Below are positions 14,240 to 31,621 of a stretch of 37,344 bases of DNA, piece by piece (positions within the stretch are counted from its first letter, which is position 1; each line of letters begins with the position of its first letter). The notes under the pieces were generated by a model. The model ran no database searches. It saw only the letters and a program-made list of their open reading frames with translations, and was not told the origin of the DNA. Source of the stretch: an uncultured Gammaproteobacteria bacterium (lineage in GTDB: Bacteria > Patescibacteriota > Microgenomatia > UBA8517). The position numbers were made by a program, and so were the translations under genes. The stretch is taken from positions 1-37,344 of the forward strand of contig CAYNFU010000004.1 of NCBI GenBank assembly GCA_964396785.1, read 5' to 3'.

Positions 14240-14629
14240 ATGTACGAACATATTCTTTTTCTTCTTTACTGGCTTTTGAATTCTCTGGCGCTGTATCTTT
14301 TAGGATTAATCTTTCCCTCCTCAGTTGTTTTGGGGAATTTCCGCCTCCTTCCCTTCGAAGCCGCTATTTACGCTGGTTTCTGGCTCACGTTTTTTGTTTG
14401 GACGATGTGGAATTTTGTGTCAACCCGTAAAGTAACACTTGAGCCGTTTTTATTAAGATTCCTTTTTTTCTTTTTTGTGAACGGTCTTGGGATTTGGATA
14501 ATTTCCCGATATGCGAAGTATACGGGATTGGGGATAGCAAGTTATTGGTGGGCACTGCTTTTGGGGGGAGTTACGGATTTACTCCAAAGTGCTGTTTGGA
14601 ATCTTTTTGGAAAGAAGCTTAAGGGTTAA
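14240..14629 (+). CDS. Small 4-TM membrane protein (distantly YvlD/phage-holin-4-like)
   Basis: Four hydrophobic segments; LLNSLALYLLGLIFP and FFVNGLGIWI...GLGIASYWWALL pattern. Confidence 0.6.
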   Translation: MYEHILFLLYWLLNSLALYLLGLIFPSSVVLGNFRLLPFEAAIYAGFWLTFFVWTMWNFVSTRKVTLEPFLLRFLFFFFVNGLGIWIISRYAKYTGLGIASYWWALLLGGVTDLLQSAVWNLFGKKLKG

Positions 14630-15275
14630 CTTCCGTAAACCATCTGGCTTCGACCCAGCCTTGGGTAATTTTATACCAATCACCGCTTTTCTCATAAAAA
14701 GGATAGACAACGCCATATTCAGCCGATCCAACCGATTTACTTTCTGGGTTGTTCGTTTCATAGATTGCGATTCTCGTTAGGTTCGCATCTTTCGCAGTGA
14801 TTTGACCAATAGCTGCTTCCGGAAGAGCCGGATTTTCAGATGGCGTTGTGACGCCAATCACATTCAAATCTCGGTTTCCCAGACTGTCAATCTTTATTCT
14901 TAAAATGCTAATTTCATTTTCAAGATAACTTCTAAATTCCTTCTCATCTGCATTTGACTGGTTAAGACTTTGCTTGATTTCACCCAGGCTCGTATTAGAG
15001 ATAGGGGTGCTTGGGAAGTATCTGGTAGAGAGGAAATAGGAAAAAATTCCAAGAAGGGATAGCATAAAAACAACAATTACCAATCTTTGGGACCATTTAG
15101 GGGTAGGCAGAGAGCCGGGGTTAGCGGCATAAATCCAGAAAAGAAAAACAACAGGAATAAGTAAAATAGTATTGGCTATATTTTGGGGTTTTGGGAGAAA
15201 AAAATAGGAAACTGGAAGAAGGACGGTTGTTGCTATTAGACTGTAGTAGAAAAGAAATAATTTAAAAAGCTTCAT
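14619..15275 (-). CDS. 3-TM membrane protein with short coiled coil and C-terminal bacterial SH3-like domain
   Basis: Hydrophobic N-terminal third; C-terminus IAIYETNNPESKSVGSAEYGVVYPFYEKSGDWYKITQGWVEARW matches the SH3b pattern. Confidence 0.72.
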   Translation of the reverse strand: MKLFKLFLFYYSLIATTVLLPVSYFFLPKPQNIANTILLIPVVFLFWIYAANPGSLPTPKWSQRLVIVVFMLSLLGIFSYFLSTRYFPSTPISNTSLGEIKQSLNQSNADEKEFRSYLENEISILRIKIDSLGNRDLNVIGVTTPSENPALPEAAIGQITAKDANLTRIAIYETNNPESKSVGSAEYGVVYPFYEKSGDWYKITQGWVEARWFTEVNP

Positions 15276-15304
15276 ACGAAATAAGTTTACATACGCAACT
15301 AACG

Positions 15305-15538
15305 ATATACAACTGGGTTTGCGTCATTTTCCAGGGTGAATCTCTGGTCTCAACCCATAATATACAAGTCCATATCCTATAGATATTACTTAATTGATAT
15401 TAGCCTCGACTTTACAACATTATACAACTATGTACTAGGTGGGTAAATAATCCAATGACGTCCTCTTTGCTCTTAAGAGCGGAGTTTCCCCTTAAAGAGG
15501 ATAGGCATCTTAGTATAACTTGGCATTGGTTGTATATT
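15305..15538. repeat. Dispersed TATACAA(C) motif copies in a long intergenic region
   Basis: TATACAA at 15306, 15361, 15421; TTTACAA at 15411; inverted TTGTATA at 15530. Confidence 0.45.
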
Positions 15539-15871
15539 GCCAGCTTTAGATTCAGCTCCGACATTTGCTGGGGCTTTCCCGAAAGTTGTTGGGAGCGAAT
15601 TATGCTAATTAAAAAAGATATGGAGTAACAGTTGGCTTAGTATTTTTCCCCACCCACTTTTTTCTGCTTGTCATAATCAATATGTATAGCTCTGATACAA
15701 AATATAACCTTTCGATGCAAACAAGATCAGGACTCGCTTATTATTAAAAAAAGGGTTTAATGTAAGCGAAAGTGGAAGGAATACCAGGCGACTTTGAAAC
15801 TACCGGAGTGTAGAAGAAGTATCATAATTTGGATATCGAAGATTAACATTTTTTGTGCATATACTATTTAT

Positions 15872-18070
15872 ATGCCCAGGAAAGTCCTTTTTGCTTTGTT
15901 CCTTGTATTGTTCTCGTTAATAACTATTCGTTATGCGCTAAACCCCGATAAAACCCAAGCTGCCATAAGTGCCTGCAGCGTTACCGTAGGCCCTAATTTT
16001 CAGAATGTTGGCTCCTCTGGTACTTTGTCATTTGGAATAACTAATAATGACGAGTCTAGTAATTCGATCCGTTGGATTAAAATAACGGCTCCATCCAGTA
16101 ATTTTGTAATTACAAATGCGACTGGGTTATATCAAAGCTCAGCTGAGATAAACTCTTCTGCGACTGAAGTAACAATTAAGCTTTCTGGTTTATCGCCAGC
16201 GGAATATGGTGAGTATTATCTTAGTATAACGACTGGGGACAACATAATGCCTGCCCAGTCGTTTGCAGTTCAAGTTTCCGACACAGACGCGGGGGACAAC
16301 CCGGTTAGTTGTTCTGGAGATACGGGGGTTTCAATACCTTCGCCGGGACAAGAAATTATTAATATTTCAAACTTGTTGGTTTCTTTTACCGATACGTCAG
16401 CTGTTATTAGTTGGAATACGGATGCAAATGCAACCAGCCAGGTAGAATATGGAACCACCAATCAATACGGCAGTACGAAAACGGATTCCAGCTTGGTTAC
16501 GACGCATTCTGTAAACTTAACCGGACTTTCCTCAAGTACCGTTTATCACTTTCGGGTTACAAGTGTAAATGCTGACAATGACACTGCCCAACTTACAGAC
16601 AACACTTTCACGACAGCTACGGCGGGGACAACCACCACATCAACCGTGACGGTAACTGCTACGACTACTAAGACTATCAGCGACACAACTTCGCCCGGAA
16701 TTTCAATAAGTACAATTTTTTCCGAGCCATACGAAACCGCTCCGGTTATTTCCGGAGTTGCAACAGATAATTCCGGGGTCTCACAAGTTGAGTATTCGAT
16801 TGACGGGGGGAAAAACTGGATTCCTGTTGATGACTTTGGGAAAACTGGTGCAAAGTCGACTACCTTTAGCTTTCTACCATCCATTATTGATGACGGCAAC
16901 TACGATATTAAAGTTAGGGCGACTGACTCTTCTGGAAATAAGACCGTTTCCAAGACTTATGCTTTGGTTATAGATAGACTTCAACCTAGAGTCGGGGGTG
17001 TACTTTTTTCTTTGGGCCCGATGGTTCTTTTACCAGATGTCCAAGGCAATATTTTTACCATCGAAGGACTGGATACTAAGGTTACTCTTTCAGCCGTAGG
17101 CGGACCGATAAAACTGGATATCTTATCAGGTAATCAAACCTTTTCTTTTGTCAGAAATATTGAGTCCGGACTTTGGAGTGGGGTGCTAAGTTTTGTCAAA
17201 CACGGCATCTTTAGCCTCGCTACTAAATCTGTGGACGGTGCCAATAATTCCACAGAAGGAACTTTAGGAACAGTTATTTCATTGGAAGCGGGGAGAGTAG
17301 TAAGCGGCGAAACCCCCTTAAAAGAAGCAAAAGTCTCCGTTTATGCCTTTGAGTCTGGACTGGGGGAGTTTTTGGCTTGGAATGCCGCCCCTTATGGCCA
17401 AGAAAGTCCCCAAGATGTGGGTAGCCAAGGTGAGTATAAACTGATTTTGCCTCCTGGAAAGTACTATCTTGAAGTTTCTGCCCCGGGCTACTCGAGAGTA
17501 CGAACCAGCATCTTTGAAATTAGCCGTCCTACCCCCATTACTCAGAACTTTAGCCTTAATAAAAGGATCGGGCTTCACCTTGGTAGAATATTTATCGGTC
17601 TTCCAGACTTTAAAAATAGGGTAGTTGATATTCAAAACGATCTCCCTGAGGCCGGGGAAAAAGTCTCGACAAAGGCTGGAGCCGCCTTGCCGGACTTCTT
17701 ATTTGAGTCGGAGGAGCAAGCAGTCTCCAACATTTCACTTCTAGGGAAACCTACCGTTCTTACTTTTATTTCTACTTGGGCGCCGGAGTCGTCAGATCAA
17801 TTATCCGCCCTAGAGGCCTTTGCAGAAGAATTTAAAGAAATAAATGTCTACGCCGTTGCCGAGCAGGAAGGAAAGGGTAAGGTTGAAACTTTCAAGAAGG
17901 TGGGCGGTTATGAAGTTGAAATCGTGGCCGATTCCGATGGAGTTCTGATTGAACCTCTTTCTCTGAGCTACTTTCCCAGCCACGTATTTGTAGACAGAAA
18001 AGGAGTAATTCAAAAGGTTGTGGTTGGCTTTTTATCTAAAGAAGAGATTGTCCAAAACCTGCTAAACTAA
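15872..18070 (+). CDS. Exported multidomain protein: FN3-like, Ig-like, carboxypeptidase-regulatory-like and C-terminal TlpA/thioredoxin-like domain lacking CxxC
   Basis: Signal/anchor MPRKVLFALFLVLFSLI; HSVNLTGLSSSTVYHFRVTS; VEYSIDGGKNW...KVRATDSSGN; LPPGKYYLEVSAPGY; GKPTVLTFISTWAPES...FPSHVFVDRKGVI. ATG 15872 is 6 nt after TATACT. Confidence 0.8.
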   Translation: MPRKVLFALFLVLFSLITIRYALNPDKTQAAISACSVTVGPNFQNVGSSGTLSFGITNNDESSNSIRWIKITAPSSNFVITNATGLYQSSAEINSSATEVTIKLSGLSPAEYGEYYLSITTGDNIMPAQSFAVQVSDTDAGDNPVSCSGDTGVSIPSPGQEIINISNLLVSFTDTSAVISWNTDANATSQVEYGTTNQYGSTKTDSSLVTTHSVNLTGLSSSTVYHFRVTSVNADNDTAQLTDNTFTTATAGTTTTSTVTVTATTTKTISDTTSPGISISTIFSEPYETAPVISGVATDNSGVSQVEYSIDGGKNWIPVDDFGKTGAKSTTFSFLPSIIDDGNYDIKVRATDSSGNKTVSKTYALVIDRLQPRVGGVLFSLGPMVLLPDVQGNIFTIEGLDTKVTLSAVGGPIKLDILSGNQTFSFVRNIESGLWSGVLSFVKHGIFSLATKSVDGANNSTEGTLGTVISLEAGRVVSGETPLKEAKVSVYAFESGLGEFLAWNAAPYGQESPQDVGSQGEYKLILPPGKYYLEVSAPGYSRVRTSIFEISRPTPITQNFSLNKRIGLHLGRIFIGLPDFKNRVVDIQNDLPEAGEKVSTKAGAALPDFLFESEEQAVSNISLLGKPTVLTFISTWAPESSDQLSALEAFAEEFKEINVYAVAEQEGKGKVETFKKVGGYEVEIVADSDGVLIEPLSLSYFPSHVFVDRKGVIQKVVVGFLSKEEIVQNLLN

Positions 18071-18074
18071 AATT

Positions 18075-19646
18075 ATGTGGAAGCCGTTTATTTTTGAAAA
18101 CCTACATTTTGCCATAAATACTTTTGGTGCCCTTTCCCTATTTTCTATTTTTTGGCTTTATTTAGACGTTTGGCTTCCCAAGAAAACCCTTAAGGAAGGC
18201 TTAAAGGTAGCAGGATTTCTACTGCTTTCCCTCTCTTTTTTACTGCAGGCGACCAGGCTTGAGGCAAGTATTATTGTTAACCCTCTAACCAGCGGGAAAC
18301 TGGTCCAGGTTATCCTACTTTTTACAAGAATAGCAGGTTACATATTGGTTGCGGCTGGTCTTGCTATTGAAAATATTGAGGTCCATCCTGAGGTAAAACC
18401 TAAAACTGGAGCAATATGGTCTTTGCCGGTTGCGTCCATGGCCCAGCCACTTCTTGCGGGAGCTATCGGGTGGCTTTACCTTAGAAAAGTTGCAGTTGGC
18501 CTTGAGCACCATCTCAAAAGGGTAGGTATTGGGTTTTTTGTGCTCGCCGTATATGAGCTTCTGGCTCTACGGGGCCTTTTTGTCGGAACCTCCAATATAG
18601 CAATTTATAAGACTACGGCCCCCTTCGGGGTTGTCTGGGGACTCGAACAGCTGGTTGAGCTTGCGGCTTTTGTAATCTTTTTCTCTTGGGCATTTTCCTA
18701 CCTTCTAAAAAGGATTAATACCCAGCTTTTTATTATTTTTACCTCCACCGTTCTTGCTATCTTTCTTCTTACGGCTGTTTCTTTCAGCTTCCTTCTTCTT
18801 AAAAACCTTCAGGACGAGACTCTTTCTAGACTTGATACCGACGCTTCCGTCTTGTCTTTTGCACTTGAAGCCAAGAAGTCTGAGGCAAAATCTATTGCTC
18901 TTGGCCTTTCCCAGAACCCTGCAGTTATTGAGGCAATTATTGGGGAAGAGAAGGGAACTCTTTCGGATTTGGCTCAAAAGACCCTTGTTGATGAAAAAGC
19001 GGGAAGCGTAATTGTCTTAGACGGCAGTGGAAAGGTTTTGGCCAGAGGTGAGGAGAGGGAGAGAGTAGGAGATTCGCTCTCTGACGACTCATTGGTAAAA
19101 AGGGTTCTTTTGGGTAAAGCTGAAACCTCGGTAATTACCAAAGACGGGGTTTTGGCCCCAACCGTTATCGTCAGAGCAGCTGCACCGATTGTCTCGGGCG
19201 AGGAAGCCATTGGAGTGGCTCTTGTAGGAATACCCATAGACAATGCGTTTATGGACGGGGTTAAAAAAGGAACTGGGTTGGAGGCTGCGGTTTTTGGGAA
19301 AGACAGCCTTTCGGCGACCACAATTACTGATTTTACGGGTAAAACTCGCCCGATTGGAATAAAAGAGACAAATAAAGAAGTATTAGAAACGGTTCTAGGA
19401 AAAGGAGAGAAAAAAACTGCACTGGTTAGTCTGCTTAATGGGCAGTATTTTGCTTCGTACCATCCCTTAAAAGACGTTGACGGAAGCGTTGTTGGTATGA
19501 TATTTACGGGCAAACCCGCTTATTCGGTCTTGGCAACGGCAGGACGCTCAATTGAGATAACCTTTTTGGTTTCTGCCGTTTTAATTATCTTTTCGATAGT
19601 CCCTACCTATTTAATCTCAAAATACATAGCCCAACAGCTTAAATAA
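18075..19646 (+). CDS. Polytopic membrane protein with Cache-like sensor domain and no cytoplasmic output
   Basis: About 7 N-terminal TMs; VIVLDGSGKVLARG...AAAPI...YFASYHPLKDVDGSVVGMIFTG; final TM then stop. Confidence 0.78.
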   Translation: MWKPFIFENLHFAINTFGALSLFSIFWLYLDVWLPKKTLKEGLKVAGFLLLSLSFLLQATRLEASIIVNPLTSGKLVQVILLFTRIAGYILVAAGLAIENIEVHPEVKPKTGAIWSLPVASMAQPLLAGAIGWLYLRKVAVGLEHHLKRVGIGFFVLAVYELLALRGLFVGTSNIAIYKTTAPFGVVWGLEQLVELAAFVIFFSWAFSYLLKRINTQLFIIFTSTVLAIFLLTAVSFSFLLLKNLQDETLSRLDTDASVLSFALEAKKSEAKSIALGLSQNPAVIEAIIGEEKGTLSDLAQKTLVDEKAGSVIVLDGSGKVLARGEERERVGDSLSDDSLVKRVLLGKAETSVITKDGVLAPTVIVRAAAPIVSGEEAIGVALVGIPIDNAFMDGVKKGTGLEAAVFGKDSLSATTITDFTGKTRPIGIKETNKEVLETVLGKGEKKTALVSLLNGQYFASYHPLKDVDGSVVGMIFTGKPAYSVLATAGRSIEITFLVSAVLIIFSIVPTYLISKYIAQQLK

Positions 19647-20497
19647 TGAAACCCACTGCCCCAAAAGAGCTGAATGTCTTTCTTAAGTTGTTAGCGGTTC
19701 TTGCTCTGGGAGGAGTCTTCTTTCTTCTCTTCTTCTCGTTTTTTGCCCGGGTGGGCAGTGGAATCTTTCTTTTTTCCGGAATTATTCCGGTCTCGGCCGG
19801 CTACTTTTTTGGCAGTTGGGGAGGCTTAGTAGGGGGGTTAGTTATCTTTCCGCTAAACTTTCTTTTGTCTAGGGCAGTTACGGGAACAAGTGTTGAAGAA
19901 TTCTTATGGCCAAATGTTGCGCCCAACCTAGGTCTTATTCTTATCGGAGTGTTTGTGGGAAGACTTAGGGAAACACAAAGAAAACTGTTTGAAGCAAAGC
20001 TAATCCAGGAGAGGCTTCGAGAGTCCGAAGCCAAATTTTCTCTTTTTATGAACAATGCCCCGATTGTCGGTTGGGTAAAAGATCCGGAAACTTGGAAATA
20101 TCTTTATATAAATAAGACCTTTCAGACCACTTTCAAAATTAAAATGGAGGAGATTACCCAGAAAAGAGATTCTGACCTTTGGCCAAAAGAGGTAGCGGAG
20201 ACTTTAAGGAAAAACGACTTTGAGGTCTACACAAAAGGGAAGGTATTCAGGATTTATGAAGACGTTCCAACGCCTGACGGTGTTATGCACCACTGGCTCG
20301 TTTTTAAGTTTCCGGTTGAGTCCGAAGGTAAGCGCCTGGTCGGGGGAACGGCGATAGACATTACAGCCTTAAAAAAATCCCAGGACGAGTTGGCGGAAAG
20401 AACGGTTGAATTAGAGAGAATGAACGAGCTTATGGTGGGAAGAGAATCTAAAATGGCCGAGTTAAAAGAGCAGATAAAAAAGCTTAAAGCTAAGTAA
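19646..20497 (+). CDS. Membrane PAS-domain protein ending in a coiled coil; no kinase domain
   Basis: 3-4 TMs; SEAKFSLFMNNAP...YINK...WLVFKFPV...GGTAIDIT (PAS/PAC); ends LERMNELMVGRESKMAELKEQIKKLKAK. Confidence 0.82.
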   Translation: MKPTAPKELNVFLKLLAVLALGGVFFLLFFSFFARVGSGIFLFSGIIPVSAGYFFGSWGGLVGGLVIFPLNFLLSRAVTGTSVEEFLWPNVAPNLGLILIGVFVGRLRETQRKLFEAKLIQERLRESEAKFSLFMNNAPIVGWVKDPETWKYLYINKTFQTTFKIKMEEITQKRDSDLWPKEVAETLRKNDFEVYTKGKVFRIYEDVPTPDGVMHHWLVFKFPVESEGKRLVGGTAIDITALKKSQDELAERTVELERMNELMVGRESKMAELKEQIKKLKAK

Positions 20498-20499
20498 AA

Positions 20500-23187
20500 A
20501 TGCGTGTAACCGCTTCCATTCGATTCAAAACTCTTCGTGTAATGCTTCTTTCTATGATTGTGCTTCTGGTTGGCTTTTCTTATTACGCCCTAACTTATTT
20601 GTCTGAGGAGTTTCATAGTATAGAAGACAGAAGAATCGGTGATAACCTCGAAAGAATTCTGGATACCCAGAAATTTAATCTTGATAACCTAAGTATTAAG
20701 CTAACTGGTTGGGCCGCTTGGGACGATACTTACGAGTTTACAGAAGATAAAAATCAGGAATATATAGATTCCAATCTCACGCCGTTTGCCGTACAAAATC
20801 TAAGGGTCAACTTCATGGTTTTTATGAATAATAAAAGCGAGATTGTTACTAGTTTGGGATACGACTACAACAATTCTCGAGAGGTTGACCTTCCGGAGGG
20901 CCTCCGTGCCCTTATCTACCCCGGAAGCGAAATTATTACTCATAGTGAAGTTAGTGGAGAAAAAAAAGGCATACTTAGTCTCGAAGAGGGTCCTTTAATG
21001 TTTGTCTCTCGCCCGATAATTACCTCCGACGGGGAAGGGCCGATAAAAGGGACACTAATTTTTGCGAGGTTTTTGGATCAGCGGGAATTAGAACTTCTTT
21101 CTGGTGTTGTTCATTTTCCTCTCCAGCTTATTAAAATAGACGACAAGCTAGGGGACGAGTATAAAGAAGCTTTCCAGGTATTAAATAGAGGGGAGAAATA
21201 TCATGTCCATAATGCAGACAGAAAAACCTCTCACGGCTACGCTTTAGTCAAAGACTACTTCGGCAAACCCGCTTTTCTTTTAAGGATGAGTTATCCCAGA
21301 GATATAACCCAACAGGGAGTCAGAAGTATTAATATTTTTATAGCCTCTTTCGTTATAGCCTCTATCGGTTATCTGGTACTAATTATATTTTTCGTGAACC
21401 GCTTTCTTATTAAGCGGGTAGAGGTTTTGTCCCGCGAGGTAGTCAAGATAGGAGAAAGCGGCTCGATGAAACTAAGAATTAACGTCGACCCTAGTCGGGA
21501 CGAAATAGCTTCTTTGGGTACAAGCATTAATAACATGCTTGAATTTCTGCAGATTGCCCAGAGGGAAGTTTCCGAGAAGAAAAAGGAGCTGGAAGGAAAA
21601 GTGGGACAGATTCAAAAACAGAACGAGTCTCTTACAGAGACCAAAAAAGCCATGCTCAACCTTCTCGAGGATGAAAAGGGGCTTGAGCAAGCCCTCAAAT
21701 CCGAGCGTGACAGAATAGGCCTTATCATCTCCTCAATGGGAGAGGGACTTTTGGTTGTTGATAACGAAAAAAGGATAATAATGCTAAATCCTGTTGCCGA
21801 GAATCTTTTAGAAACCAAAGGACAGGTGGTTATCGGTAAAAGCTGGTCGGAAGTAGTAAAAACCCTTAAGGAAGATAAAGAAGTTCCCGTTATGGAGCGT
21901 TCTTTCACCCAAGTGGTAGCCAAAAGAAAGCCGATTATTACCAATCTTGAGGACGACCATTACTATCTAACCAAATCCGGCAGGAAATTCCCGATTGTTT
22001 CAATTACAGCCCCCCTTATTTCTGGCGGTAAGTTAGTCGGGGCAGTCAAGGTATTTAGGGATGCGACAGTCGATAAAGATGCTAAAGAAAATATCGAAAA
22101 AGAGGTGACAGAGCGTACCAAAGAACTCGCTGAGGAAAAGGCCAGACTACTTGCTTCAATTGAGAGTCTTCCGAGAGGATTTATCTTAACCGACCCCGGA
22201 GGAAATGTTATTTTAACCAATAAACTATTAGTTGATATTTTCGGAAAGATTCCGAGAGAAGGCTGGACTCTTGCAAGTCTTCAGACCGTTTTAGGTAAAA
22301 GTTTTGACCTGATGGGGAACTTTAAAAAAGTTATCTCACAAGTGGAAAAATCCGTCTATGTAGGAGCCTTATCGTGGGGTACCAAATTTCTTGAACTATT
22401 CATAGTACCGGTTACTCTAGCTAATGGAAGTGTGGTTGGGACAATAATACTTATAGGAGACGTTACTGAAGCCAAGGTTTTAGAGCGTTCCAAAGACGAG
22501 TTCTTCTCAATTGCCAGCCATGAGCTTCGAACTCCATTAACTGCCATCAGGGGCAATACCGCTCTAATTAAGGATTACTTTGTCAAGAAAGTCAAAGACC
22601 CTGAATTTGTAAATATTGTAGATGATATTCACACATCAAGCATTAGACTAATTGGAATTGTTAATGATTTCTTAAATCTCTCCCGCCTGGAGCAGGGGAG
22701 AATGGAGTTTAAGAAAGAAAAAGTAGATGTTGCGGCCGCGATAAAACAAGTTTTTGAGGAGCTCGGAGAGTCGGCGAGTGCGAAGAGTCTTAAACTTGTA
22801 TATATTGAGTCAAAGACGAAAGTGCCGCTAGCCTTGGCAGATAACGAGAAGGTCAAAGAAGTTTTAGTCAACATTCTTGGAAACGCAATCAATTACACCG
22901 AAAAAGGAGACGTGACAGTAAGTCTCACTGCCGAAGGGGGTCAACTTAAAGTAAAAGTGGCGGATACAGGGAGGGGAATTCTCGTTGCCAATCAAAACCT
23001 TCTTTTCAGGAAATTCCAACAGGCAGGCTCAAGTCTCTATACCAGGGATACGACCAAGGGAACGGGGCTCGGGCTTTACATTAGTAAGCTTATGGTCGAG
23101 GGAATGGAGGGAACAATTGGCCTCTTGGTGAGTAAAGTTGGGGAGGGTTCAACTTTTTGTTTCACACTTCCTATTGCAAAGAGTTAG
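20500..23187 (+). CDS. Sensor histidine kinase (CHASE4-HAMP-coiled coil-PAS-PAS-HisKA-HATPase)
   Basis: WAAWDDTYEF and SRPIITSDGEGPIKGTLIFARFLD (CHASE4); DEIASLGTSINNML (HAMP); ASHELRTPL, NILGNAINYT, DTGRGI, GTGLGL. Confidence 0.93.
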   Translation: MRVTASIRFKTLRVMLLSMIVLLVGFSYYALTYLSEEFHSIEDRRIGDNLERILDTQKFNLDNLSIKLTGWAAWDDTYEFTEDKNQEYIDSNLTPFAVQNLRVNFMVFMNNKSEIVTSLGYDYNNSREVDLPEGLRALIYPGSEIITHSEVSGEKKGILSLEEGPLMFVSRPIITSDGEGPIKGTLIFARFLDQRELELLSGVVHFPLQLIKIDDKLGDEYKEAFQVLNRGEKYHVHNADRKTSHGYALVKDYFGKPAFLLRMSYPRDITQQGVRSINIFIASFVIASIGYLVLIIFFVNRFLIKRVEVLSREVVKIGESGSMKLRINVDPSRDEIASLGTSINNMLEFLQIAQREVSEKKKELEGKVGQIQKQNESLTETKKAMLNLLEDEKGLEQALKSERDRIGLIISSMGEGLLVVDNEKRIIMLNPVAENLLETKGQVVIGKSWSEVVKTLKEDKEVPVMERSFTQVVAKRKPIITNLEDDHYYLTKSGRKFPIVSITAPLISGGKLVGAVKVFRDATVDKDAKENIEKEVTERTKELAEEKARLLASIESLPRGFILTDPGGNVILTNKLLVDIFGKIPREGWTLASLQTVLGKSFDLMGNFKKVISQVEKSVYVGALSWGTKFLELFIVPVTLANGSVVGTIILIGDVTEAKVLERSKDEFFSIASHELRTPLTAIRGNTALIKDYFVKKVKDPEFVNIVDDIHTSSIRLIGIVNDFLNLSRLEQGRMEFKKEKVDVAAAIKQVFEELGESASAKSLKLVYIESKTKVPLALADNEKVKEVLVNILGNAINYTEKGDVTVSLTAEGGQLKVKVADTGRGILVANQNLLFRKFQQAGSSLYTRDTTKGTGLGLYISKLMVEGMEGTIGLLVSKVGEGSTFCFTLPIAKS

Positions 23188-23210
23188 GGTTGACATTTAA
23201 AATGTAAAAT

Positions 23211-23579
23211 ATGTCGAAGATTCTCATTATTGAAGACGATCCATACGTTCTCAAGTTTTACGCTAGACTTTTTGCCCTGGGTAAATACGAGGTCGAAATG
23301 GCGGGAAGCGGCAAGGAGGGACTGGAAAAAGCAAGGGCGTCAAAACCCAGTTTGATTCTTCTTGATATAATGATGCCCGAAATGGATGGATTTGTAGTCC
23401 TTAAAGAGCTCAAGGCCGACCCTGAAACAAAAGACTCTGAAGTCATTATGCTTACAAATCTAAGTGATACGGAATCATATAAAAAGGCAATTGAGTTGGG
23501 GGCAAATGGCTATTTGATCAAAGTAAATAACCCGCCCGAAAAACTCATTGAGGAGATAGAAAAACACATTCATGGCTAA
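23211..23579 (+). CDS. Single-domain response regulator (receiver only)
   Basis: ILIIEDD, LILLDIMMPEMDG, MLTN, YLIK; 122 aa. Confidence 0.92.
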   Translation: MSKILIIEDDPYVLKFYARLFALGKYEVEMAGSGKEGLEKARASKPSLILLDIMMPEMDGFVVLKELKADPETKDSEVIMLTNLSDTESYKKAIELGANGYLIKVNNPPEKLIEEIEKHIHG

Positions 23580-23988
23580 GATATTAATTATTGAAGACGA
23601 CCCCCTGATGAGCAGGATGTATCAAAAGATATTCTCCTTTGAGGGCTACGAGGTAGACGTTGCCGAAGACGGGGAGGACGGCCTGGCCAAGGTAAGGAGT
23701 TGGGGCCCCAACCTCATACTTTTGGATATTATGATGCCCAAAATGAACGGTATGGAGGTTCTGGAGAGGCTTAAAAGTGACCCTACCACAAAAAAACTTC
23801 CTGTTGTGATTTTGACCAACCTGGCTGGTCAAAAAGACGCAGAAACTGCAATGGGCAAAGGAGCAGTAAAATATATAGTAAAGTCCGAGTACGAGCCCAA
23901 AGAAGTCGCCAATATGGTCAAAGAGATTCTGGCCGGCTATACCAGAGAAGAGGTACCCCAAGTTTCGGAAGATAAACAACAAGGTTAA
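23572..23988 (+). CDS. Single-domain response regulator (receiver only)
   Basis: ILIIEDD, LILLDIMMPKMNG, ILTN, YIVK; short acidic tail. Confidence 0.92.
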   Translation: MAKILIIEDDPLMSRMYQKIFSFEGYEVDVAEDGEDGLAKVRSWGPNLILLDIMMPKMNGMEVLERLKSDPTTKKLPVVILTNLAGQKDAETAMGKGAVKYIVKSEYEPKEVANMVKEILAGYTREEVPQVSEDKQQG

Positions 23989-23990
23989 AA

Positions 23991-24260
23991 ATGCCCCAGT
24001 CTCAAAAAACTTCAAATGCTAAAGTTCCATACGTTCCCCTTAATTCACCACTTAAAATAGAAGGCGCCAAAGTCAGGTCCGAGTCCGTACCCTCATATTC
24101 CGGCTCTCCACTAACTTATGAAAGCGCTCTTGCCCAAGCAAAGGTTCGTGATGGGAAAGTCAGAAGGGACGACAATCTTTTTGTTCTGGGAAGTGTAGTT
24201 ACCATTCTCATGCTCCTCGGCGTTGCCGCTATTTACTTTTTCCTCTTAAAATATACTTAA
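23991..24260 (+). CDS. Small protein with C-terminal transmembrane anchor
   Basis: 89 aa, polar N-terminus, single C-terminal TM; fills the operon gap (2 nt after the previous stop). Confidence 0.65.
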   Translation: MPQSQKTSNAKVPYVPLNSPLKIEGAKVRSESVPSYSGSPLTYESALAQAKVRDGKVRRDDNLFVLGSVVTILMLLGVAAIYFFLLKYT

Positions 24261-24281
24261 TAGGGGAGTATTATTTAATTG

Positions 24282-25097
24282 ATGCTAGGGTTTAATAAAA
24301 AGACCACGGCAAGGCGCAGACTAATTTTTGTATTTTTTATTCTGGGAGCTTCCTTAGCCACATTATTCTTGGGTAATATAAGCTGGCCTAAAGATATTTC
24401 TTTCCAAAATCTCTGGGGTGTGGCATCTGTATGTCTTGCAGCTACAGCTGGGGTTTTAGCCCTTATAAAGCTTATGACCCGCAAGAAAAATAAGTACGCA
24501 TTTATCGCAGGAGGTTTTTTTGGGGTTGCCGTAATTGAGCTTTATAGCCTATTTAGCCCCCTTGGCCCCTCAGCGCTTCTTTGGCTCCTATCTAAAATAC
24601 TTCTTTCAGGGTACTTACTTCTATCACTTAAGGCTTGGCGTGAGGGAGAAGGGGAACAGAAGGGCTTAAAGCCCAGAGTTTATGTCTCCGCTGCAGTTTC
24701 GGCCGTACTTATTATAATTTTGGTGAGCCTGCTTCCCTCTTACGACCCATATAATCCAATGGGTCCTTTTGGTCGACCGATTGAACTGACCGCCGTCTTT
24801 TTATTCGCTGCGACGGCAATCGGATACTATTCCAAAGGCTATTGGGAGTTTAAATACTTTGAATTCTGGTTTCTGCTTTCACTTGTTTCCGCTATTTTTT
24901 CCCAAACCTATATGGCTCTCTCGCAATCATATTTTGATGGAATATACTGGGGGGCCATAATCTTAAAGAATTTGGGTTACTTATTTGCTCTTATTGGGCT
25001 TTTAGCAAGTTCATGGGCGGCATTCCGAGAAGTTGAGGCTGAAAAGAAGTATTTAGCAGGACACACTAAGGGAGAAGCCTACCTTAAAGAGCAATAA
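24282..25097 (+). CDS. Stand-alone polytopic membrane sensor (MASE3-like) with no catalytic domain
   Basis: About 8 TMs; YAFIAGGFFGVAVIE, GRPIEL, WFLLSLV...SQSYFDGIYWGAIILKNLGY resemble MASE3 segments of kinases (from memory); GGGGAG upstream. Confidence 0.62.
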   Translation: MLGFNKKTTARRRLIFVFFILGASLATLFLGNISWPKDISFQNLWGVASVCLAATAGVLALIKLMTRKKNKYAFIAGGFFGVAVIELYSLFSPLGPSALLWLLSKILLSGYLLLSLKAWREGEGEQKGLKPRVYVSAAVSAVLIIILVSLLPSYDPYNPMGPFGRPIELTAVFLFAATAIGYYSKGYWEFKYFEFWFLLSLVSAIFSQTYMALSQSYFDGIYWGAIILKNLGYLFALIGLLASSWAAFREVEAEKKYLAGHTKGEAYLKEQ

Positions 25098-25133: not shown

Positions 25134-27119
25134 TTAGGGGGTTGGAGAGGGCGATGGTTCACCTTCTGGAGGTTGAGACTCTTCGGGAAGTTCAAGTGGA
25201 GGTTCAAGCGGCGGCACTGTTTCTTCTCCTTGAGGAGGTGTAAGGCTTTCCCCGCCTTGAGCTTCAGCAGATTTCTTGGCCTGTAAATCCTCAAGTTCTT
25301 TCTGGGCGGTTAAAAAGTCTTGTGAATTTTTGTCTTGTATTAAGGATAGTACCAATGTCATCTGGGTTATGGCTTTATCAATTTCCCCATTATCCCTGTA
25401 GGCAAATGCCAAATTATAATGCCCATTGGCTAGATCCGGTTTGGTAGCAACTGCAAGCTCCATCACCCTTACAGCCTCTCCATACTGCTTGAGTCCATAA
25501 TGTACTCCCCCCAGAGAAATTCTTAAGTTGGGGTTTAGTGGGTCAAGAGCAACAGCCTGTGAATATGTTTGGACAGCGAAGTTATCGGCTCCTTCAGCAA
25601 TGGGCATAATTGCCCTATAAATTCCAGCCAAAACCTCCCAGTTTCCCGCCCTGGCTGGATTTAGCACAACCGCAGCTTTTCCTTCGTTTATTGCTTGCTG
25701 GACGAGCTGAGTGAGAGTGGTTCTTTCTGCCTCTGTTAAGTCAGCCTTTTGAGCAAGATTTCTGGCAATGGCTAGGTTTACTTGTGAAAATATCGAATGA
25801 TACCTGTCAACCTGGGGATTTAGCCTTATAGCAGTTCTTACTTTGTCATAAGTAGCCTGTCCGTCACCACGAGCAAGTGCATCAATTCCCTCCTTAAATG
25901 TGTATTCAGCGACAAGGGTTCTTCCCATATAGAATGTAAATAGAGCGACAGCCAAAATAACGGGTAGACTTACTATTAATGAGGGAAGTCGAGAGCTAGC
26001 TCCAGAAACCCCTACGGAGGTCAAATTAAGCGAGGTGTGTGTAGTTTTGGCAAATAATGAAAGAAGGATAAATAAAAGAATGCTCACAAGTATGGTTACC
26101 GGGAAGAAGGCCAAAAGGATAAGTAATAGGCATAGAGAAATCGTTTCTGGGTAAGAGCGAAGACTTGAAAGCTCTCCCTCTTTCATTTCGCGTCTAACTA
26201 CCCTAAAGACCGAGTAGACTAAGATTAGGAGTGCAGCAAGCCCAAGCAATCCTATTTCTGTTAGGGCCGTTAGATAGAAATCCCTACCTGTTGCAAATCT
26301 CACAGGCCAAAGGTCTGTCGAGTTATATGCGATCGGCTTAAATCGGGAAAAAGCAGTTATATAGTTACCCGGCCCTATTCCAAGTACTGGGGATTGCTTA
26401 AGGGAGTCGACTGCTACATTCCAGGTTACTCCAAAACTTGGGAATCGGGGAGAGAAAGGTTTTCCAGGAAGCATTTGATAAATTGACGCTGAAAGCGCAA
26501 GGCCGGTTAAGATTATAAAGACAATTGCTACTCCCTTTTTAAGCATAGCCTTTTCCCTCAAAAATTCTGAGATACCCAAGGGAAGAAGGGCTCCAAGAAA
26601 TATTGCGGCGGGCAAGTATCCTCCGTCTGGCGTAAATCCTGCGCTTCTTACTGCTGCCGGAAGGCCAGAAATTGAGGAAAGTGTCCCCGATACTCCCAAA
26701 AGGAGAATTAAGGCGAAAATACTCGATGCGGCAAGAAGTATTGTCAGGAGGGCCTTCTTCTCAGATGCCCCCATTTGGTTGATTAGGTAATAAAGAAGTG
26801 CCCCGCCAACAAAAGCAGTTGCCGTTCCCGGAAGTAAGTAAGCCTCCATCTTATTGGGGGTTCTTAAGATCGCGCTTAAAAGGTAGGAAGCCGCCAGTAG
26901 TAGAACCGGAAAGTCAAGGCTTCCTACTTGAAATTCAAGCTTACCGCTTAAAATAACCCTTACTGCCTTTACCAGGAGAAGAAGTCCAACACCTATGGCC
27001 AGAACCGCCAACCTTCCGGGTGTAAATATATTAGGCGAAATGGGAAGAAGTGCGAGGGGGAGTAAAAATACCGTCGCATATACCAAATACTTCTCAAGTT
27101 TTTCCAATAGAACCTGCAT
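25134..27119 (-). CDS. O-antigen ligase/oligosaccharyltransferase-like (Wzy_C) membrane protein with TPR repeats and Pro/Glu-rich tail
   Basis: About 12 TMs; SPVLGIGPGNY, YLTALTEIGLLG; TPRs AVVLNP, AVALDPLNP, KPDLANGHYNLA. Confidence 0.8.
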   Translation of the reverse strand: MQVLLEKLEKYLVYATVFLLPLALLPISPNIFTPGRLAVLAIGVGLLLLVKAVRVILSGKLEFQVGSLDFPVLLLAASYLLSAILRTPNKMEAYLLPGTATAFVGGALLYYLINQMGASEKKALLTILLAASSIFALILLLGVSGTLSSISGLPAAVRSAGFTPDGGYLPAAIFLGALLPLGISEFLREKAMLKKGVAIVFIILTGLALSASIYQMLPGKPFSPRFPSFGVTWNVAVDSLKQSPVLGIGPGNYITAFSRFKPIAYNSTDLWPVRFATGRDFYLTALTEIGLLGLAALLILVYSVFRVVRREMKEGELSSLRSYPETISLCLLLILLAFFPVTILVSILLFILLSLFAKTTHTSLNLTSVGVSGASSRLPSLIVSLPVILAVALFTFYMGRTLVAEYTFKEGIDALARGDGQATYDKVRTAIRLNPQVDRYHSIFSQVNLAIARNLAQKADLTEAERTTLTQLVQQAINEGKAAVVLNPARAGNWEVLAGIYRAIMPIAEGADNFAVQTYSQAVALDPLNPNLRISLGGVHYGLKQYGEAVRVMELAVATKPDLANGHYNLAFAYRDNGEIDKAITQMTLVLSLIQDKNSQDFLTAQKELEDLQAKKSAEAQGGESLTPPQGEETVPPLEPPLELPEESQPPEGEPSPSPTP

Positions 27120-27247: not shown

Positions 27248-30200
27248 CTAAGGCGGACCAGTGGCAGATCCGAAAAAGACCGCACCCTCGTTATATGCCT
27301 TTTTAACCTGAGCCTGACTTAAGGGGTAACTGTAAATACGGACATTGTCAATTTGACCATCGAAAGGATTGCCCTCATCAGACTCCGAACCTATTTGAAA
27401 AGAAACAGCCGGGTCTGAAGGTAAAGATCCTACGGTACTTCCGGCAGTCACAATTCCATCGACATAGACGAAGATCTGTCCGATATCATTATCCCAAACG
27501 CCCACGATATGGTGCCAACCTGCCGCCGTAATTGTAATACCCGAGCTATTGACAATGTCTCCGACCGATCCGTTTCCCACATTGAAAACAGATAAATCTC
27601 CTACATTAATATACAGAGCCCAACCGTCAATGAGTGTGGATGAAATATCATCTTTTTTCGAAGCAATTACGTCAAGTGTATTAAATGTTGCCCGATTTAC
27701 CCAGGCTTCGACTGAAAAACCAGAATCAACTATGTTGAATTGACTTTGGTCACCCATATCTACATAGTCCGCGTTGGCTGCCGTAGCGTCGCCGTCAAAA
27801 TCCAAAGAAGCATTTCTTTTGCCGGTTGTTCCGTTATTCCACATCTCCGTTGTCGTTCCTGAGCTACAGGAGCCTACAGAAGTATTACTTCCTCCGGAGC
27901 CTGCCGAAATTGTTCCGTTTAAACCGAAAGCCTCACCACTACTGTTAATAGCAGAATTATAGGCAGTTGTGCCCGAACACTCATCGAGCTTATACCAAGC
28001 CCAAGGTGCCCCACGGTTATATGTATAAACTGTTTGGGCGTCGGTAAGTGTATAGTTATAAAATCGAACATCGTCGATTGTTCCATCCCAGCCGTCGCTA
28101 GTTCCGTCTCTGTCCATTCCGATATATAGGGCATTAGCATTTGTTAAGGTAGCCAACGCAGCTCCTCCCGACGCAACCACTCTTCCATCAACGAAAAGTT
28201 TTAAACCTTCCGATGTATCGCGTTTTCCAACAACGTGGTGCCAGAGGCTATCGTCATAGTCAATCCCGCTAGTACAGGCAAAGGCATCCGGAGTCCAAGT
28301 TGTATCATCATCGGTTGCAAAACAAAAGTCGCCGCTGTCGTCCATATAAAGTTTGTAACCCCCGTTTGTGGTATCTGCCTTAGTCATAATATAGTCGTTG
28401 CTTGTCGAGATGGCGCCATTATGTTTAACCCAGGCCATTATGGTAAATCCCTGATCGTCGGCAACATCGAATTCGGAATCGTCCGCCCAGGAAAGATATT
28501 CGTTGGAGCCATCAAGAGTCAAAACGGAGCTACTTTTATTAAGATACATGGATTTGGACCAATCTGTTTCCTCGATGTTGTTCATGGTCATATTATTTTC
28601 ACCTCCCGAGGAATCACTTACAGTTGTTGTACCCGTTCCTTCGCTTAGTCTCCACCAGCCGTTAGGGGGATTTCCTCCAAGACCACCGTCGTCATAGCCG
28701 GTGATATCCCCGAGTACGGCGCTGGATCCGTAATTCATATCAACCTTAACCTCAGAAGAGAAGAGAGCAGAACGGAAGATTTTTACCTCGTCAAGGTCGC
28801 CATTAAAGTCGTCCGTATCGTTGGTTGCGTTTCTATCGCCAATTGTCAAAGAGTCAGTGTTTGACAGGTTTCCGGTTGCGGTAAGTGTAGCGTCAGCATC
28901 AACTAATTTCGCGTCTATATAAAGCTCAAGACGCCCAGTTGTGGTATTTCGTATGCAAACCGCATGATGCCATGTTTGGTCGTAGTAGTCTGTATTTGCG
29001 GCTGTATCTCCGGCAGAATCTTCGGGGAAAGTAGTTGCATCATCGTCAATTCCACAGACGATCTCTGCATTTGTGGCAGTTGCCCATATGGCATAACCCG
29101 CTGATGCGGCCTCTTTACTTACAAGGTACTCGTCGTTTGAGGGATTTGTCAGGGAATCCGATTTAAACCACAGACTTAACGAGAAATCTTCGGCTGTATT
29201 AAAGTCGAAATCTGGATCATCTGTCTTTGAAAGCCAATTGGCCCCCGTTCCATTCCAGGCACCATTAAATTTACCAGACGGGGTCCAAGATGAGCTGTTT
29301 AAAGTCAAATCATTGTTATTGGTTGTGGTATCTTGGGCAGTAGTACCGTATTCATCGTCCATTTTCCAGCGGGCAACATATGAACCAACGGGGGAGCCGG
29401 GGGAGGGGTGGCCGGCATTCATATCTGTGATTAATTGAGTCGAGTTACGGGCATAGGCGTAGACTTTAACATCGTCGACCCTAGAATTTACATTAAAAGG
29501 AGAGCTTGCACCTCCCATAATTGAAAAGAGTTGAGTGTTTGTCATGGAATCTACACTTGAAATTGTTCCGGCTTCGGAAGTCTTATCTTTAACCCCATTT
29601 ATATATACTGCCGTATTTGTAGTGGAGTCACGATCAAAAACCGCGGCAATGTGATACCAAGTATTGGCAGTGAGCCTCGTAAAAGCGGTACAGGTCTCGT
29701 ATTTGTCCGTACCATCCGCGACATATAGGCAAATGTTGCCATCGTTTGGATTGGACCATGCCAGCAAAGCATATCCGGCTCCGGTATCAAGTGCGTTGGC
29801 CTTTTTACGAATTAGTAATAAATCGTTGTCAGTATCTTCCCGATAAAACCAACCTTCAATTGTCAGGTTCTCTCCCTTTATGTCAGTAATAGTGTTTTGG
29901 GTAGTAGTAATCGCGTCTGATGATTGTCCAACTCTTACTCCACTTCCAAATTTTGCAGTTGTCCAGCTAGCTCCGGAGGCTAAAGTAAGCGTATCAATTC
30001 CTGCGCCGCCGAATTCTAAAGAGCCGCTGGTATCATTTGCCGAAGTTCCCGTATTTTCGTCTAGTTGGTAATAGGCAATTGGAGCAGGTCCCCAGGAATA
30101 GAGTTTTTCGATTTCGGCTGAGGACATTGCTCGGTTGTAGATGCGAACGTCGTCAATTTTACCGGTGTAGTCGTATAGCCCGTACGCGGCACTTCCACCA

Positions 30201-31582: not shown

Positions 31583-31593
31583 ATATTTAATAT

Positions 31594-31621
31594 TCATAAA
31601 TCTTAAATCGTAAATCATAAT
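31594..31621. repeat. Four imperfect tandem heptamers TCATAAA-TCTTAAA-TCGTAAA-TCATAAT
   Basis: Read directly between the giant fibre gene and the LamG gene. Confidence 0.8.

Follow-up and report, generated by a model that had tools for sequence, protein, structure and literature searches.

How can one kinase take in signals from sensors that are encoded apart from it? A run of eight plus-strand genes (g1 to g8, positions 15872-25097) raises this question; it lies in a window of 37,344 nucleotides (nt), contig C4 of a 0.84 Mb genome that is 91% complete in 73 contigs. Descriptions of sensor kinases usually treat them as single chains, and how several sensor signals combine is an open question. 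The original prediction pictured these genes as a modular system in which three sensors lacking a transmitter act in trans on a single histidine kinase, accompanied by two bare receivers. Our analysis suggests that they probably form one conserved Woesebacteria-like two-component cluster, whose kinase takes input from separately encoded, kinase-less sensors. The most informative feature of the locus is a pair of motifs: a 'plug' at the end of the sensor g3, and a 'socket' within the kinase g4.

The predicted layout holds. Open reading frame (ORF) calls and the junction sequences show eight co-directional, tightly packed genes, with successive spacings of +4, -1 (TAATG), +2, +23, -8, +2, and +18 nt, and a Pfam check agreed with the earlier domain assignments, including a single kinase and receivers devoid of output domains. 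The kinase g4 (20500-23187, + strand) has the architecture CHASE4-TM-HAMP-[socket helix]-PAS-PAS-HisKA-HATPase, where TM denotes a transmembrane segment. It carries a phospho-acceptor histidine in the H-box (SHELRTPL, residue 673) of its HisKA domain (E 2.5e-18), an ATP-binding HATPase_c domain (E 3.9e-22), and visible N, G1, and G2 boxes. For comparison we used 121 genomes of the same taxonomic family, labelled G000 (the host genome), G001 (same genus), and so on. Full-length orthologs of g4 in G051, G052, and G068 are 41-43% identical over residues 13-894; the cluster in G052 is present twice with identical scores (contigs C3 and C5, 8% contamination), likely a duplicated or co-binned contig, and was counted once. 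Because the neighbourhood recurs in at least 16 family genomes, the arrangement is beyond chance.

Upstream of the kinase, g3 (19646-20497, + strand) encodes a kinase-less protein with a membrane module (residues 1-127, three to four TM segments), a PAS_4 domain (residues 151-243, E 6.5e-11), and a coiled-coil C-terminal helix; the protein end reads ELERMNELMVGRESKMAELKEQIKKLKAK. The plug of g3 (20408-20476, + strand) occupies residues 255-277 of 283, reads ELERMNELMVGRESKMAELKEQI, and ends 6 residues before the stop. At 90% identity g3 forms a cluster of 24 members, of which the listed full-length ones are 283 residues long and three are shorter fragments, and a near-identical copy is on record as a hypothetical protein of a Candidatus Woesebacteria bin. 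We rejected read-through or another genetic code joining g2, g3, and g4: the three genes lie in three frames, g2 and g3 stop at TAA, and long ORFs are intact under table 11. The g2 stop is real, the same gene having been found on seven contigs.

All kinase-less sensors that we found upstream of a kinase in related loci end in the plug, whatever precedes it. A g3 homolog of the same TM-PAS architecture occurs in G049; elsewhere the tail follows PAS-PAS (G051), PAS (G052), CHASE4 (G102), CHASE4-HAMP-PAS (G135 and G130), FNR-like-PAS (G016 and G102), or TM-HAMP (G130 and G110). The plug consensus is ELERxNxLMVGRExKMxELK, and L, M, R, E, M, E, L, and K are invariant in the alignment of family sensors. 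We found no entry covering the tail in Pfam, NCBIfam, or the PDB.

The plug also marks a much larger class of proteins. Scored against 1.84 billion representative proteins, its profile matched 15,814 of these clusters at E<=1e-3 and 2,049 at E<=1e-10. The core motif is present in 148 of the best 150 matches and lies at most 30 residues from the C-terminus in 140 of the 148, with a median of 7 residues. None of the 148 contains a kinase core, and eight have an N-terminal receiver. Among the 105 that were scanned with Pfam, being no longer than 1000 residues and fitting the size limit, 99 have a PAS domain, and the 25 most frequent families include none of the kinase, cyclase, or DNA-binding type. 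They are recorded under unspecific names, 'PAS domain S-box protein' being one example. We place g3 in this class, as it combines the tail near its C-terminus with a PAS domain lacking an output domain and with a socket-bearing kinase directly downstream. We also tried the plug as a degenerate dimerisation and histidine phosphotransfer (DHp) helix, that is, an H-box remnant of HisKA helix 1 in a pseudo-kinase, and rejected it: hhalign of 120 plug sequences against kinase DHp regions aligned only the PAS-end columns, at a probability of 0.56%.

Plug genes are ordered with respect to kinases. The family plug profile gave 29 matches in 16 of the 121 genomes, with one 28-residue fragment dropped; 16 of the 22 assessable genes, in tandems of one to three, immediately precede a kinase, and five more are cut by contig ends. 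In the window, the g3 stop lies 2 nt before the g4 start. We then used custom hidden Markov models of the kinase core, receiver, plug, and socket to scan 80 bacterial and archaeal loci independent of the family sample, the plug pattern holding up in 444 of 599 candidate stretches. On the bacterial side they include Patescibacteria, Bacteroidota, Gammaproteobacteria, Acidobacteriota, Geobacter, Myxococcales, Nitrospirae, Planctomycetia, Chloroflexota, and Bdellovibrio, and on the archaeal side DPANN lineages, Thermoplasmatales, Methanomassiliicoccales, and ANME-2. These loci hold 110 plug ORFs, none of which shares its ORF with a kinase core, and the motif ends at most 30 residues from the stop in 108. 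A kinase follows 78 of the 98 assessable plug ORFs, directly or via further plug genes, and 12 more reach a contig end. The 58 resulting arrays have 40 single, 16 double, and 2 triple plug genes; at the plug-to-kinase junction 20 overlap (thirteen by 4 nt, and one as an ORF-calling artefact) and 38 are spaced between -17 and +33 nt.

The kinases that follow plug genes share a motif of their own. In g4 this socket, KKAMLNLLED at residues 383-392 (consensus KxAMLNLLED), lies in a coiled coil between HAMP and the first PAS domain, with its core AMLNLLED at residues 385-392 (21652-21675, + strand). It is common to the family kinases downstream of plug genes, with A, N, E, and D invariant in the alignment; G068, where no plug gene accompanies the orthologous kinase, has a degenerate version (AMVKLLQDE), and in G001 and G008 the motif is missing. 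Across the 80 loci the socket is present in 33 of the 58 kinases that follow plug genes, versus 1 of the 32 other kinases; the one exception is found 1.3 kb behind a REC-tail gene. Nine of the 33 socket kinases are at most 400 residues long, with the socket starting 12-115 residues from the N-terminus and nothing else ahead of the catalytic core as judged by four models, which cannot detect sensor domains.

Motif conservation, exclusion of the plug from kinases, gene order, coupling-type junctions, co-occurrence, and the fission and fusion events described below together suggest that the plug docks physically on the socket, a proposal to which we give nearly even chances. Under the competing explanation the plug is only a homo-oligomerisation or stability helix; the sensors act in some other way, such as binding receivers or sequestering a ligand, and sit in the kinase operon for co-regulation. 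PAS dimers commonly end in coiled-coil helices, and the receivers are an equally constant neighbour, a small receiver ORF of at most 175 residues following the kinase in 33 of the 58 arrays. Several further observations weigh against docking. The tails of tandem sensors within one operon are nearly identical, so the plug alone cannot give partner specificity. A socket is not detectable in 25 of the 58 kinases that come after plug genes, and there are orphan plug genes: no kinase follows 20 of the 98 assessable plug genes in the 80 loci or 6 of the 22 in the family. One of these six is in the host genome itself, on contig C2 between glyoxalase-like and VIT1 genes with no kinase nearby. The orthologous kinase runs without a plug protein in G068 and G001, which makes g3 accessory rather than essential. 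A PDB sequence search found no solved structure containing the plug. The co-occurrence in the family (a socket in 15 of the 121 genomes, 13 of them also with a plug, and only two socket matches, both weak, in the 105 genomes without a plug) is partly circular, as both models were partly built from the same genomes, and related genomes are not independent in such counts.

One would not, however, expect a generic dimerisation helix to hold R, E, M, E, L, and K invariant all the way from Patescibacteria to archaea, or to be kept out of kinase polypeptides as the plug is in both protein sets. The socket moreover tracks the plug specifically, and several downstream kinases have the socket helix alone ahead of the catalytic core. 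We therefore consider a mere oligomerisation helix unlikely. The orphan on contig C2 (5936-6535 of the fetched locus, - strand) is a soluble 199-residue PAS protein, the second plug protein of the genome, and its tail reads …ELERMNKLMVGRELRIAELKERLKKL….

A sister species provides a view of the same modules wired differently. In G001, g1, g2, g5, g6, and g7 are collinear with their counterparts in G000, at 43-91% identity, and a single gene of 628 residues replaces g3 and g4. Its N-terminus (~127 residues) is 65% identical to the g3 membrane module, and the remainder matches g4 residues 390-895 at 76-79% identity. At the join, sequence from immediately ahead of the g3 PAS domain meets sequence from immediately past the g4 socket, leaving the fusion without the PAS domain and plug of g3 and without the CHASE4, HAMP, and socket of g4; profile searches found no CHASE4 match and no plug match anywhere in the G001 genome. 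Since the nearest full-length relatives of g4 (G051, G052, and G068) all keep CHASE4, and in G051 and G052 a plug gene immediately precedes the kinase as well, the G000 state is ancestral and G001 the product of an in-frame deletion of ~1.6 kb. By this comparison the same membrane module appears to drive the kinase core in cis in G001 and stands apart, with a plug, in G000, the opposite of decay. Further fission and fusion pairs point the same way: CHASE4-HAMP-PAS-plug is separate from the kinase in G135 and G130, and fused in G000; FNR-like-PAS-plug is separate in G016 and G102, and FNR-like-PAS is fused to the kinase in G008.

This polarity bears on whether the sensor-only genes are simply truncated kinases, non-functional or being lost from a reduced genome. 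The genome is indeed small, and Cache, PAS, and MASE3 domains are usually fused to transmitters. Full-length kinases among the close homologs had been named in advance as the sign of recent truncation, and taken literally one exists for the g3 membrane module, in the G001 fusion; G084 likewise has a MASE3-PAS-kinase and a kinase in which the g3-type TM module precedes PAS-PAS. The G001 gene is, however, the deletion derivative, not the ancestor. The g2 layout does not vary among 16 orthologs or among 118 of the best 120 homologs listed, g3-type proteins form a class of thousands of clusters, and 13 of the 16 proteins from the g8 search are of similar length (271-303 residues). Ratios of non-synonymous to synonymous substitution (dN/dS) against G001 are ~0.08 for g2, 0.19 for the g3 membrane module (127 aligned codons), 0.06 for the C-terminal part of g4, and 0.10 for g8, consistent with purifying selection on these genes, though only roughly, as dS is saturated and the ratio is not computable for g1, g6, g7, or the TPR gene described below. 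Truncation is thus largely refuted and very improbable.

We suggest more broadly that plug and socket may be a universal non-covalent connector across Bacteria and Archaea, which would accept any sensor type, allow tandems of up to three or four, and let cis and trans wiring be easily interconverted; we hold this at somewhat less than an even chance. Were it true, the G000 and G001 pair would be a natural example of cis/trans rewiring.

The second proposed trans sensor, g2 (18075-19646, + strand), is a stand-alone 8-TM protein: ~7 TM segments, an extracytoplasmic double Cache domain (Pfam dCache_3, E 6.6e-18), an eighth TM segment, and then the protein end 7-9 residues later. Both the dCache_3 sequence match and a two-lobed PDC fold between TM helices in the AlphaFold2 model (predicted local distance difference test, pLDDT, 81) place it among the double Cache proteins, and Foldseek against the PDB matched the sensor domains of DctB, Tlp3, LuxQ, and KinD (E 1e-7 to 1e-5). 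The transmembrane part has no match in Pfam, NCBIfam, or Foldseek against the PDB. All 16 aligned orthologs (30-70% identity) end 7-9 residues past the last TM segment. Orthologs occur in 21 of the 121 family genomes with open frames of 469-561 residues, none fused to a kinase (the G104 match is weak, and the G135 gene is split in two). The best 120 homologs listed have only sensor (Cache or CHASE4) Pfam domains; 118 are 511-555 residues long and two are shorter, and those named in the database search come from Shapiro-, Davies-, Gottesman-, and Levybacteria. Together with the Woesebacteria record of g3, these names put the host organism in the Microgenomates group of Patescibacteria.

In every mapped locus g2 is adjoined by g1 (15872-18070, + strand), a secreted or surface protein with a signal peptide followed by fn3, Ig-like (Big_13), CarboxypepD_reg, and AhpC-TSA thioredoxin-fold domains (Pfam). 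The C-terminal thioredoxin fold (17670-18067; AhpC/TSA, ResA-like) reads TWAPES at the CXXC position, and as CXXC is absent from 16 of 16 orthologs the domain is a conserved redox-dead fold on a surface protein. On the locus maps of all 16 assessable family genomes, a histidine kinase lies no more than ~3 kb from g1-g2; another four loci are truncated by contig ends, and we disregarded one weak match. Action of g2 in trans on the kinase is moderately supported by this neighbourhood. The evidence for g2 is of this kind only, a point against the overall reading.

Alternatively, g1-g2 could be a separate surface module for adhesion or the envelope, a regulatory target or a mere neighbour of the cluster, in which the Cache domain binds a surface ligand or g1 and sends no signal to the kinase. 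Such a module would fit a protein that has neither a plug tail nor a cytoplasmic domain, a g1-g2 pairing that stays constant while its order and strand relative to the kinase vary, and envelope-type neighbours: multi-TM and TPR, SH3, and giant LamG proteins. The Cache domains are, by contrast, signalling sensors in all solved relatives found (DctB, Tlp3, LuxQ, and KinD), and g1-g2 has stayed by a kinase in every assessable genome through these rearrangements, despite only one to three HisKA matches per genome in the five genomes checked. We regard a surface module detached from signalling as quite unlikely.

Membership of the third proposed sensor in the system is not supported. g8 (24279-25097, + strand) is a stand-alone MASE3-like 6-TM protein whose match to Pfam PF17159 is marginal (32.4 bits against a gathering score of 31), with an additional weak, below-cut-off match to an oligosaccharide polymerase model. 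It has no plug motif and was found in only 3 of the 121 family genomes; its G001 ortholog (71% identity) is on another contig next to the TPR gene, indicating that g8 goes with that gene rather than with the kinase. Sixteen proteins of 53-100% identity came up in a database search, one of them identical, 13 of 271-303 residues and three of 155-257 residues; PF17159 is matched in 11 of the 16, and the named relatives are Woesebacteria. In G084 the MASE3-PAS-kinase begins with a relative of g8 at 30% identity. On the comparative evidence we consider g8 a conserved stand-alone membrane protein that neighbours the cluster without being a member, and its link to the kinase is not supported. The idea of sensors working in trans is thus well supported by comparative genomics for g3, moderately for g2, and not supported for g8, which is not syntenic with the kinase. 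The G084 genes lie in a signalling island (contig C3, 4497-17000 of the fetched locus) with g2, three kinases, and six single-domain receivers, where modules that stand alone in G000 are fused.

Downstream of the kinase, g5 (RRa, 23211-23579, + strand, 122 residues) and g6 (RRb, 23572-23988, + strand, 138 residues) are single-domain receivers that match only Response_reg in Pfam. D9, D10, D52, T82, and K104, which form the acidic pocket, phospho-acceptor aspartate, threonine, and lysine, are invariant in the receiver alignment, and all receivers of the genome retain the phospho-acceptor residues. g5 is 91% identical to its G001 ortholog, and across genera g6 is better conserved than any other gene of the cluster (68-73% identity). 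g6 also has a conserved C-terminal extension, KEILAGYTRxEVP (tail LAGYTR), which is not present in RRa and is possibly a partner-binding tail. The small g7 (23991-24260, + strand) encodes 89 residues with one C-terminal TM segment and matched no Pfam family; its homologs were seen only in G001 (43% identity) and G075.

The genome as a whole has two HisKA matches and three receiver matches, all three receivers being single-domain, and no match to Trans_reg_C, GerE, or GGDEF was found in its 91% complete sequence. This is consistent with the original prediction of a system without transcriptional output. A second two-component system, on contig C10 (2423-6490 of the fetched locus), comprises a soluble 252-residue HisKA-HATPase protein with no sensor and a 149-residue receiver. 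It lies directly downstream of PilM-like and prepilin-type (N_methyl) genes, a position that makes it a candidate pilus-linked module.

We propose the following mechanism. g4 would be a competent kinase with its own extracytoplasmic CHASE4 input, and g3 a membrane-anchored PAS sensor whose sole 'output' is the C-terminal plug helix. The plug would dock on the socket helix of g4, in the coiled coil between HAMP and the first PAS domain, and the state of g3 would modulate g4 autophosphorylation in trans, summed with the CHASE4 signal. g2, along with the surface protein g1, is probably an additional accessory sensor that acts through contacts between membrane helices. Adjacency and conservation suggest that phosphate passes from g4 to g5 and g6, which would then have to act by protein contact. 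The domains, catalytic residues, conservation, both motifs with their genomic coupling, and the cis/trans rewiring in G001 are established computationally; docking, how g2 works, the direction in which regulation runs, and what the receivers target are inferred.

The cluster is flanked by genes of envelope character. Upstream, an SH3-like gene (14619-15275, - strand) encodes three TM segments and an SH3-like domain with a weak Pfam SH3_3 match (E 3e-4), and its homologs lie beside the cluster in G102, G091, G084, and G045. Between this divergent gene and g1 is a 596-nt non-coding stretch (15276-15871) of low G+C (0.37 over 15001-16000) without an Rfam or tRNA match; such scans gave no match in the whole window. 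Downstream and convergent to the cluster, the TPR gene (25134-27119, - strand) encodes a multi-TM membrane protein with ~9 hydrophobic segments before its TPR repeats (Pfam TPR) and a proline/glutamate-rich tail, a layout that presumably resembles that of O-antigen-ligase-type membrane proteins. Homologs of this gene are convergent, downstream of the receivers, in G051, G135, and G102. On the same strand as the adjoining TPR gene, two giant minus-strand ORFs follow (27248-31618, 1456 residues; 31625-37342, >1905 residues), likely encoding large surface proteins, as the first holds six Laminin_G_3 (ConA-like lectin) repeats.

Patescibacteria are very poor in regulators; of the two HisKA-type kinase matches and three receivers in this genome, the cluster accounts for one and two, respectively. 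Being linked to surface proteins, it is a good entry to environment sensing by episymbiont-like cells. If the connector is as we propose, thousands of 'PAS domain S-box' proteins annotated without a function would become interpretable as kinase inputs, sensor-less kinases behind plug genes would be explained, and the connector pair could serve as a small natural part for synthetic multi-input kinases. The window adds a conserved Microgenomates cluster with g1 and g2, and the cis/trans pair of G000 and G001.

Auxiliary kinase sensors are known, and a sequence-conserved connector pair shared across two domains of life, which we did not find in the literature, Pfam, NCBIfam, or the PDB, may be undescribed. 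We found no literature description of the plug, the socket, or such sensors in Patescibacteria, in a search that covered subscription journals thinly and so gives weak evidence of absence. YycH and YycI, which accompany WalK, are membrane-anchored, extracytoplasmic, non-catalytic proteins that are encoded with their kinase and act via transmembrane contacts. Contact of this type is the likely mode for g2, and an integrative WalK-YycH model (PDB 9a5d) is among the g2 Foldseek results. g2 differs in having eight TM segments and a double Cache domain, without homology to YycH or YycI, and its interaction is a prediction.

PAS-type sensors without an effector domain are also known. The short LOV protein PpSB1-LOV ends in a helix and acts on partners, and MopJ of Caulobacter is reportedly a single-domain PAS protein that acts on partner proteins. 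Both differ from g3 in lacking the GRExKMxELK tail, which has no PDB sequence match, and in not being systematically upstream of a kinase. Split histidine kinases are said to distribute kinase function over two polypeptides by a break within the catalytic transmitter; in our system, by contrast, the g4 transmitter is whole and the split falls between sensor and transmitter.

VtrA/VtrC and ToxR/ToxS are co-component systems: adjacent, often overlapping genes encode the input and the output, whose products are in obligate contact, with no phosphotransfer (PMC9214523). They differ from our system in having a lipocalin-like sensor and a membrane transcription factor as output, with no kinase and no coiled-coil docking. 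The closest likeness is to H-NOX/HqsK of Vibrio harveyi and NosP/VpsS of V. cholerae, in which a separate, co-cistronic sensor controls kinase autophosphorylation by contact (PMC6769237). The nine short socket-only kinases fit this logic. Those sensors are haem proteins with folds of their own and no shared docking helix, and Pfam and NCBIfam scans found no haem-NO-binding (H-NOX or NosP) domain in g2, g3, g7, or g8. By analogy, g3 and g4 would work like H-NOX/HnoK-type accessory sensors but are not members of that group: here TM, PAS, CHASE4-HAMP, FNR-like-PAS, and REC-PAS sensors share one plug, their kinases share one socket, and g4 keeps a sensor of its own.

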